Shown here one piece after another: positions 17,890-18,492 of a stretch of DNA of 20,211 bases. Under the pieces are notes generated by a model. The model was not told the origin of the DNA. It was given only the letters and a program-made list of their open reading frames with translations, and ran no database searches. How positions within the stretch are numbered: the stretch's first letter is position 1; the number at the start of each line of letters is the position of its first letter. The stretch is from a virus. Its lineage: Duplodnaviria > Heunggongvirae > Uroviricota > Caudoviricetes. The stretch lies in the IMG/VR virus record IMGVR_UViG_2548876938_000006; one strand, given 5' to 3'. A program made the translations under genes and the position numbers.

Positions 17890-18492
17890 TCATTCAGTAT
17901 CATCACGCGCGGTCTGTGCATATGTTACTACCGCACCTAATGTATTAATTTTCTTTTCAACATAGATAATATTATCGTACTCATAATTGCCATACGGATA
18001 GCAAATGCGAATATTCTCATGTAGATCGGGGTCATCCACCTCAGCTCCAGAACAACTTTTTGAACTACCGGAAGTATACCGATACGGTGCAACATAAGAC
18101 GATGTCTCTCCAGGCAAAAAATAAGTTAGTGTTGTAAGGGGTATAATCAGAAAAAATCCAGCAAATATGCACATCCCTGCATAAACCTTAAGGTATGCTG
18201 ACAGACTCTTCCAGCCGCTTTGTTTTACTATCCCCTTCTTAACCCAAAACAGAGATAACAGAAAAGCTATTCCCATGCTAAACAGAATGTAATAGTGGGA
18301 TATACTCTGATTAAGAAACGTGACCCTGTAAATATCTGCCCGCCACCAGAAGAAAAGGAAAATAAAGATCAGGCCTGAAACTGTCATGCAAATCAAATAA
18401 GGATACGAATCTTTTTTCATGTTTAGCGTCCATAAAATTTTTCCTGCCCCGGACAAATTTACCATCCATTTTTTGCGCAGAAAATAGCTCAT
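17890..18492 (-). CDS. Unknown membrane protein (3 predicted TM segments), antisense to the pL operon
   Basis: 200-aa ORF, AT-rich. Hydrophobic segments YLICMTVSGLIFIFLFFWW, YYILFSMGIAFLLSLFWV and VYAGMCIFAGFFLIIPLTTLTYFL, then a ~70-aa Cys-containing soluble tail. Start ambiguous (18492, 18465 or 18420). Confidence 0.55.
   Translation of the reverse strand: MSYFLRKKWMVNLSGAGKILWTLNMKKDSYPYLICMTVSGLIFIFLFFWWRADIYRVTFLNQSISHYYILFSMGIAFLLSLFWVKKGIVKQSGWKSLSAYLKVYAGMCIFAGFFLIIPLTTLTYFLPGETSSYVAPYRYTSGSSKSCSGAEVDDPDLHENIRICYPYGNYEYDNIIYVEKKINTLGAVVTYAQTARDDTE

Follow-up and report, generated by a model that had tools for sequence, protein, structure and literature searches.

Why does the pL operon of a lambdoid prophage carry a single membrane-protein gene that points against all of its neighbors, from where could such a gene be read, and what might its product do? 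The window analyzed here, a 20,211-nucleotide stretch of viral DNA (IMG/VR record IMGVR_UViG_2548876938_000006), carries the plus-strand genes of a lambdoid prophage: 434-type cI, N, the cIII thermoregulator, kil, gam, bet, exo, a TraR/DksA-type zinc-finger gene, ORF55, xis, and int. Both the open reading frame (ORF) list and gene identification bear out the first-pass annotation in placing all genes from cI to int on the plus strand apart from one minus-strand ORF. This AT-rich ORF of 200 amino acids lies where it was claimed (17890 to 18492), in the slot that phage lambda fills with ea22 and ea8.5, as comparison with lambda confirms. Within 17692 to 18664, the ORF list holds no plus-strand ORF longer than 30 amino acids, and GC content is 0.33 to 0.41 over 17700 to 18700, compared to approximately 0.5 in the flanks.

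Setting and boundaries of the cassette

Over 17680 to 18740, the window is 100% identical to phage 434 (OL657226) and to prophages beside ybhC in many Escherichia coli genomes. Phage 434 carries an extra 437 bp with ORF114 between ORF55 and xis (L001 4236 to 4671), which is absent at window positions 18903 to 18941; because this segment is missing, the window is best described as a 434-like prophage and not phage 434 itself. Elsewhere in the window, the lambda cIII thermoregulator RNA (RF01804, 88.5 bits) is found at 14596 to 14654 (plus strand), as expected for a lambda-like pL operon, and a 293-amino-acid ORF without a Pfam family directly follows N in that operon (13098 to 13979, plus strand). 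A 158-amino-acid ORF without a Pfam match (11950 to 12426, plus strand) overlaps the 3' end of the 434-type cI (11393 to 12025), a place that resembles the reported site of the phage 434 Hex protein.

BLASTN comparison with lambda and phage ev099 put breakpoints at 17691/17692 and 18664/18665, between which 973 bp replace lambda ea22-ea8.5. The flanks are shared with lambda and ev099 at 97 to 98% identity (97% for lambda). The features that define the cassette are as follows:

17692 to 18664, minus strand: whole AT-rich cassette (moron), between the TraR-like gene and the tL4-type terminator/ORF55, delimited by the BLASTN breakpoints
17676 to 17693, plus strand: ea22 remnant, GTG AGC GAA ATT AAC TAG (MSEIN, then stop), overlapping the stop codon of the TraR-like gene; lambda homology runs through the first 16 nt of ea22
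18665 to 18684, plus strand: terminator hairpin from a terminator scan, named t-L4 in phage 434 (M60848), common to lambda; the right edge of the cassette, outside it

Lambda homology resumes at 18665. On the left, a 44-nt ea22-like fragment at 17690 to 17733 matches an ea22-like pseudogene that lies beside the copy of the cassette in the P2 hotspot, and we infer that the ea22 remnants are scars of the replacement that brought the cassette in. The cassette has further marks of a moron: it is absent from the close relatives lambda and ev099, which have conserved flanks on either side of the slot, its base composition deviates from its surroundings, and it carries a terminator-like hairpin of its own. 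In ev099, the same slot holds ea22 followed by a gene of the LprI family (periplasmic lysozyme inhibitor; L018 1456 to 2154).

Start codon, upstream region, and probable terminator

Annotations of the gene differ in length, with 200 amino acids in RefSeq and 188 amino acids, from a TTG, in the phage 434 record. Comparison of homologues suggests that both calls are probably too long. Residue M25 of the 200-amino-acid ORF is invariant and is the first residue in nearly all homologues (Salmonella, Enterobacter, Klebsiella, Cedecea, and others; 42 to 78% identity), in-frame stop codons occur 1 to 10 codons upstream of this conserved ATG in 13 other homologous loci, and the ATG at 18492 is not conserved, the Salmonella copies having ATG TAG at that position. 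For these three reasons, translation almost certainly begins from the ATG at 18420 and yields a protein of 176 amino acids, and the 5' end at 18492 in the first-pass annotation is over-extended, its first 24 codons being probably noncoding. The ORF can thus be divided into the following parts:

17890 to 18492, minus strand: open, AT-rich antisense ORF of 200 amino acids, from the ORF list
17890 to 18420, minus strand: coding sequence of 176 amino acids plus stop (stop codon at 17890 to 17892), with three transmembrane helices in residues 1 to 102 and a C-terminal beta domain in residues 103 to 176
18421 to 18492, minus strand: 24-codon "N-terminal extension" of the 200-amino-acid ORF, most likely a noncoding 5' region

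Mis-set annotated starts of this kind hide the promoter region of the gene. A 56-amino-acid "putative membrane protein" annotated upstream in phage 434 (CPT_434_35; 18496 to 18666, minus strand) has no conserved counterpart in the P2-hotspot copy and no PGAP call, and we reject it as a gene.

The regulatory features recognized around the coding sequence are these:

18456 to 18484, minus strand: candidate extended −10 promoter (TTTTCT-17-TGgTAAATT), with −35 TTTTCT at 18484 to 18479, TG at 18464 to 18463, and −10 TAAATT at 18461 to 18456
18501 to 18535, minus strand: A-tract and then a series of three direct repeats spaced 10 bp apart, TTACGC at 18526 to 18521, TTGTGT at 18516 to 18511, and TTGTGC at 18506 to 18501
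17832 to 17855, minus strand: stem-loop of 9 bp closed by a 6-nt loop, 35 nt past the stop codon, terminator-like in a minus-strand scan

The gene had been expected to need a promoter in 18493 to 18640, where a simple promoter scan gave no consensus promoter. The best candidate instead lies at 18484 to 18456, within the first 24 codons of the 200-amino-acid ORF. This candidate is a consensus match with a weak −35, which the simple scan did not flag, and its predicted transcript start is at approximately 18449. The same fixed position gives the top-scoring promoter in the window, in the E. coli P2-hotspot allele L013, and in L004/L005, and it comes near the top in L010/L012 and in the Citrobacter allele L020. 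Across the compared alleles the −10 ends 35 to 39 nt before the ATG (35 nt for TTTTCT-17-TGnTAAATT in the window, L013, and L004/L005), and the TGnTAA core is kept in the upstream-region alignment. The lambdoid and P2 copies share approximately 130 nt of conserved sequence ahead of the ATG, although synonymous sites in the gene have largely diverged (dS of 1.2 for the closest allele and saturated against the others). The claim that the gene is independent of pL is supported in this respect, with its own promoter standing as a candidate. The cassette may also be silenced, since it is AT-rich and has a −10 that we take to resemble an H-NS nucleation motif.

Upstream of the candidate promoter, repeats of the form T(T/C)GTG(C/T) with an exact 10-bp period occur in one to four copies in most phage-borne alleles (including L013, L094, L101, L005, L004, and L104). 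The array is kept even in an allele with 52% protein identity and is absent from two distant IMG/VR alleles, L107 and L109. A dimer motif built from the repeats occurs 94 times, always 40 to 160 nt upstream of the gene, and 0 times elsewhere in 1.59 Mb of flanking sequence; it was not found in the chromosomal copies of the gene. We presume that the array binds a regulator. The repeats of the E. coli mraZ promoter share with it only a GTG core and the 10-bp period, which makes for an unconvincing match.

An alternative hypothesis for the array is that TTGT-N6-TTGT at 18516 to 18503 is a lambda CII box, so that the gene would be switched on only during the establishment of lysogeny. The GenBank record of phage 434 labels this site a CII box, the conserved direct repeats recur every 10 bp, as CII boxes do, and its layout is also that of the window's genuine pRE and pI boxes. 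A CII-dependent promoter, however, has TTGC-N6-TTGC straddling the −35, with a −10 approximately 12 nt downstream; at 18503 to 18516 the boxes read TTGT rather than TTGC, and 12 nt downstream stands GAGCTA, which is not a −10-like hexamer. The repeats lie 40 to 80 nt upstream of the conserved −10 and not around a −35, and CII-type motifs occur in the window at chance frequency (8 found compared to 5.3 expected). The repeats are also best preserved in P2-like prophages, which are not known to have CII. Given this chance frequency, the wrong −10 spacing, and the occurrence in phages without CII, we regard activation by CII as highly improbable and retain the reading of the array as the presumed site of another regulator.

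At the other end of the gene, the first-pass annotation had the ORF converging on the TraR-like gene across an 8-bp inverted repeat at 17832 to 17854. The inverted repeat is real, but its arms are 9 bp long (17832 to 17840 and 17847 to 17855) around the 6-nt loop. Its local fold has a predicted energy of −17.6 kcal/mol (z = −1.9) with a weak U-tract (CUCGUUUAUU), and it probably serves as a weak intrinsic terminator of the cassette.

The encoded protein and its conservation

Three hydrophobic helices had been read from the ORF, and these are backed by hydropathy and by an AlphaFold2 model (mean pLDDT of 86.8) with helices at residues 5 to 29, 38 to 61, and 70 to 101, followed by a five-strand beta domain that reaches a pLDDT of 91.8 when modeled alone. 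The two domains can be described as follows:

18115 to 18420, minus strand: membrane domain, with a short basic N terminus predicted to be cytoplasmic, TM1 (approximately residues 7 to 26), a putative periplasmic loop with a conserved IYRVTFL, TM2 (approximately 44 to 60), a Lys-rich loop predicted to be cytoplasmic, and TM3 (approximately 81 to 102)
17893 to 18114, minus strand: predicted periplasmic beta domain of five strands and weak OB likeness, marked by an invariant pair of cysteines and the motif SCSGAxVDDPDLxxNIRICYPxGNY

When charges were counted over 19 sequences, loop 2 came to a net +3.6 and the C-terminal domain to a net −1.3. From hydropathy, this positive-inside charge pattern, and the invariant cysteines, the N terminus and the Lys-rich loop 2 are predicted to be cytoplasmic and the acidic C-terminal domain periplasmic, where a disulfide between the two cysteines is plausible. 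The beta domain is the most conserved part of the protein.

Scans against Pfam, NCBIfam, and the PADLOC models of known defense proteins, together with a PDB sequence search, returned no family match, and Pfam reported only DUF6057, below threshold. The structural search gave no informative neighbor, with nothing at an E value of <0.01 in a Foldseek search of BFVD. For the beta domain, itself only weakly OB-like, the closest candidates are small domains of the OB type (DUF1093, PDB 3npp and 2k5q; cold-shock-like barrels) that are secreted or anchored in the membrane. Searching 1.84 billion representative proteins with a profile recovered 61 relatives (E ≤ 0.001); many are shorter fragments, and the full-length ones have matching architecture. 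A 3,074-amino-acid repeat protein also matched that profile (E = 1e-6) through a short Cys-containing stretch, and we judged this match spurious.

The sole match among PHROG families was PHROG 1416 (a 90-position profile with no functional information), to residues 113 to 200 of the 200-amino-acid ORF (E = 2e-50). This profile spans TM3 and the beta domain only and probably reflects 5'-truncated gene calls, such as forms of 96 and 112 amino acids. A 112-amino-acid, 5'-truncated form of the 78%-identical allele, with TM3 and the beta domain only (P0131, P0133, and P0140 in cluster P0039), is found on at least 1,000 contigs and may be either a pseudogene or a functional protein of reduced length.

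Annotation of the gene as "hypothetical" only, the truncated form on many contigs, and disruption of the gene in 3 of 80 IMG/VR viral-contig loci would all be compatible with a chance ORF or a decaying pseudogene that has no function. Against this stand the confident fold prediction and the conservation of the architecture across genera down to 36% identity. Compared to the 78%-identical E. coli allele L013, dN/dS is 0.10 (dS, 1.22; dN, 0.124), with both halves of the protein constrained and the periplasmic domain evolving most slowly and not diversifying. The other 77 viral-contig loci are intact, and by our estimate the probability that a stop-free run of 176 codons would arise by chance in DNA of 38% GC is approximately 7e-6. 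On these measures the gene is real and under purifying selection, and we give almost no credence to the chance-ORF or pseudogene reading, which appears already contradicted by the conservation of homologues and by purifying selection.

The gene is present in 997 of 5,426 complete E. coli genomes (18%), in 962 of them at ≥80% query coverage. Its copy in O157:H7 Sakai, ECs_0804, is intact in the decayed prophage Sp3 (L029), in which int and bet are pseudogenes; the immunity region of Sp3 appears to be missing as well. Isolated phages with the gene are only 434, 2B8, and mEp332.

Mobility and possible roles at the cell envelope

The same cassette occurs in phages of an unrelated type. In E. coli and Salmonella, a unit of approximately 1 kb comprising the gene, its upstream repeats, and its 3' region is found between the portal gene Q and the replication gene A of P2-like prophages, and its alleles at this gpA-gpQ hotspot, two of them from Salmonella, encode proteins with 58 to 78% identity to that of the window. 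The E. coli copy L013 is homologous to the window over 18557 to 17783, with short matches at 18588 to 18553 and 17733 to 17690. Beside the P2 copy lies a pseudogene fragment resembling ea22 (L030 4775 to 5145; L013 6669 to 7004), from which it follows directly that the cassette has moved between the lambdoid ea22 region and the P2 hotspot. Genes of 81 and 119 amino acids neighbor it at only some P2-hotspot loci and have no Pfam matches, so they are not obligate partners.

Relatives also lie between Q and the holin gene of a lambdoid prophage and beside the integrase gene of an element with partition, anti-restriction, and toxin genes (one in each setting). Single-gene islets occur on Klebsiella, Citrobacter, Serratia, and Pseudescherichia chromosomes. 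Copies in six Enterobacter species are syntenic and apparently inherited vertically, and the family is found on many Pantoea megaplasmids, where vertical inheritance is probable. By this pattern of occurrence, the cassette is self-contained and mobile among lambda-like phages, the P2-like anti-phage hotspot, and bacterial chromosomes. Two islets have neighbors of a common kind: the Serratia marcescens homologue is directly downstream of ptsG (L118 3333 to 5510), and a Klebsiella homologue adjoins a bgl-type PTS operon (L014 3882 to 6543). This adjacency may be fortuitous, or it may point to a connection with PTS permeases.

Anti-phage systems abound at the gpA-gpQ locus, which is the old/tin hotspot (PMC9122126), and homologues of the window protein are common cargo there, which makes plausible the earlier suggestion of a factor for exclusion or conversion. 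For this locus, Rousset et al. 2022 list in their Table S5B System #4, a single protein described as "3 TM" with no Pfam family and 470 loci, the fourth most frequent entry; it is absent from the table of tested systems (PMC9122126). The System #4 protein shares 52% identity with the window protein over 168 residues (E = 3e-57). It has matching motifs and length, and its gene shares the upstream TTGTGC repeats. The difference lies in location and documentation: System #4 occupies the Q-A position of P2-like prophages and is known from a table row only, whereas the window copy stands antisense in a lambdoid pL operon. In a P4 satellite hotspot, six of eight randomly picked unknown cargos proved defensive in a 2026 follow-up (PMC13586616). 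A literature search on ECs0804/ECs_0804, WP_000120063, and mEp332 returned no functional data, and the 434 genome announcement is silent on the gene.

Judged from this context, the protein most likely protects the lysogen at the cell envelope. Our best single guess, to which we assign slightly less than even odds, is phage exclusion at the DNA-entry step, because of the hotspot association, the precedent of the P4 cargo, and the envelope topology. We envisage a 434-type lambdoid prophage whose pL operon has received, in antisense orientation, a cassette (17692 to 18664) made up of one gene (18420 to 17890, 176 amino acids) together with a regulatory array, a candidate extended −10 promoter, and a hairpin terminator. 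In the lysogen, pL is repressed and would not interfere with transcription of the gene from its own promoter; upon induction, antiterminated pL transcription would run head-on through the gene and could shut it down. Both steps are read from orientation only. The product would be an inner-membrane protein of three helices, with a cytoplasmic N terminus and a probably disulfide-bonded beta domain facing the periplasm. This domain could then attach to a conserved component of either the host entry route or the injection machinery of an incoming phage, and such binding would block DNA entry of superinfecting phages.

A fuller version of this proposal can be put forward only tentatively, and we hold it to be appreciably less probable than not. 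In it, the family would be a widespread single-gene exclusion or defense determinant whose OB-like periplasmic domain blocks DNA entry at the inner membrane, with PTS-type permeases (ManYZ or PtsG, for instance) as one conceivable site. A novel regulator would act on the TTGTGC array, and the promoter-gene-terminator unit would shuttle among lambdoid phages, P2-like phages, and chromosomes.

The same contexts contain evidence that counts against exclusion, and it favors what we rank as the main rival: a fitness or immunity factor of the envelope with no phage target, carried as a lysogenic-conversion gene. Such a protein could modulate a transporter-like host component, or it could neutralize an envelope-acting toxin (a bacteriocin, contact-dependent toxin, or T6SS effector) or conjugative entry. 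The vertical-looking Enterobacter copies, the Pantoea megaplasmids, and the slow evolution of the periplasmic domain mean that a cellular envelope function fits equally well. The single-gene islets point the same way; they occupy chromosomal sites that are unrelated to one another, and two adjoin PTS permease genes. The P2 hotspot itself also holds non-defense cargo, such as partition systems and the cdt toxin (PMC9122126). Yet no toxin, secretion system, or consistent partner neighbors the gene in any context examined, the protein has no homology to known immunity or entry-exclusion families, and the mobile alleles concentrate in slots for anti-phage and conversion cargo. We therefore regard this rival as a possibility to be taken seriously, though a doubtful one.

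Transmembrane proteins of defense hotspots are generally regarded as suicide effectors (PMC9122126), which raises the alternative of abortive infection, in which the protein would permeabilize or depolarize the inner membrane so that the cell dies before the phage cycle ends. A nonsignificant BFVD match at rank 17 (E = 0.46), to a "2TM beta-strand rich effector," would agree with such a role. However, most contexts offer a single gene without a sensor or antitoxin partner, and the folded, cysteine-bearing domain is predicted to be periplasmic, away from cytoplasmic cues of infection. The gene is also stable in 18% of E. coli genomes and on Enterobacter chromosomes, with no sign of toxicity control. 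An abortive-infection effector is thus unlikely, and we return to exclusion at DNA entry as the preferred reading.

A gene carried by the classic phage 434 and by approximately one-fifth of complete E. coli genomes, O157:H7 Sakai among them, is one of the commonest cargos of the P2 hotspot. If phage exclusion is its function, it would add a new family to the few envelope-level exclusion factors and would help to account for gaps in host range among lysogens of E. coli and Salmonella. A further gain would be a clean example of a cassette that crosses between unrelated phage types with its regulatory region intact. The family is widespread and unstudied and belongs to a known kind of element, which makes it a good target for bench work rather than a surprise.

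Small inner-membrane proteins that act on incoming phage, some of them with periplasmic parts, include the superinfection-exclusion proteins Imm and Sp of T4, SieA of P22, and SieB of lambda and P22. The mechanism proposed for the window protein is of this type, and the protein is predicted to lie in the inner membrane with a periplasm-facing part; Pfam and PHROG scans gave no match to superinfection-exclusion families (Imm, Sp, SieA, SieB, gp15, and Cor/Llp). Morons expressed from lambdoid prophages include bor and lom of lambda and gp15 of HK97, the last a superinfection-exclusion moron. These are outer-membrane, lipoprotein, or single-helix proteins without sequence similarity to the window protein, which is predicted to have three helices and a periplasmic beta domain. 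In organization, the cassette is likewise a single gene of deviant composition with its own (candidate) promoter and terminator, present or absent between relatives and encoding an envelope protein. Like bor, the window gene opposes the surrounding phage operon.
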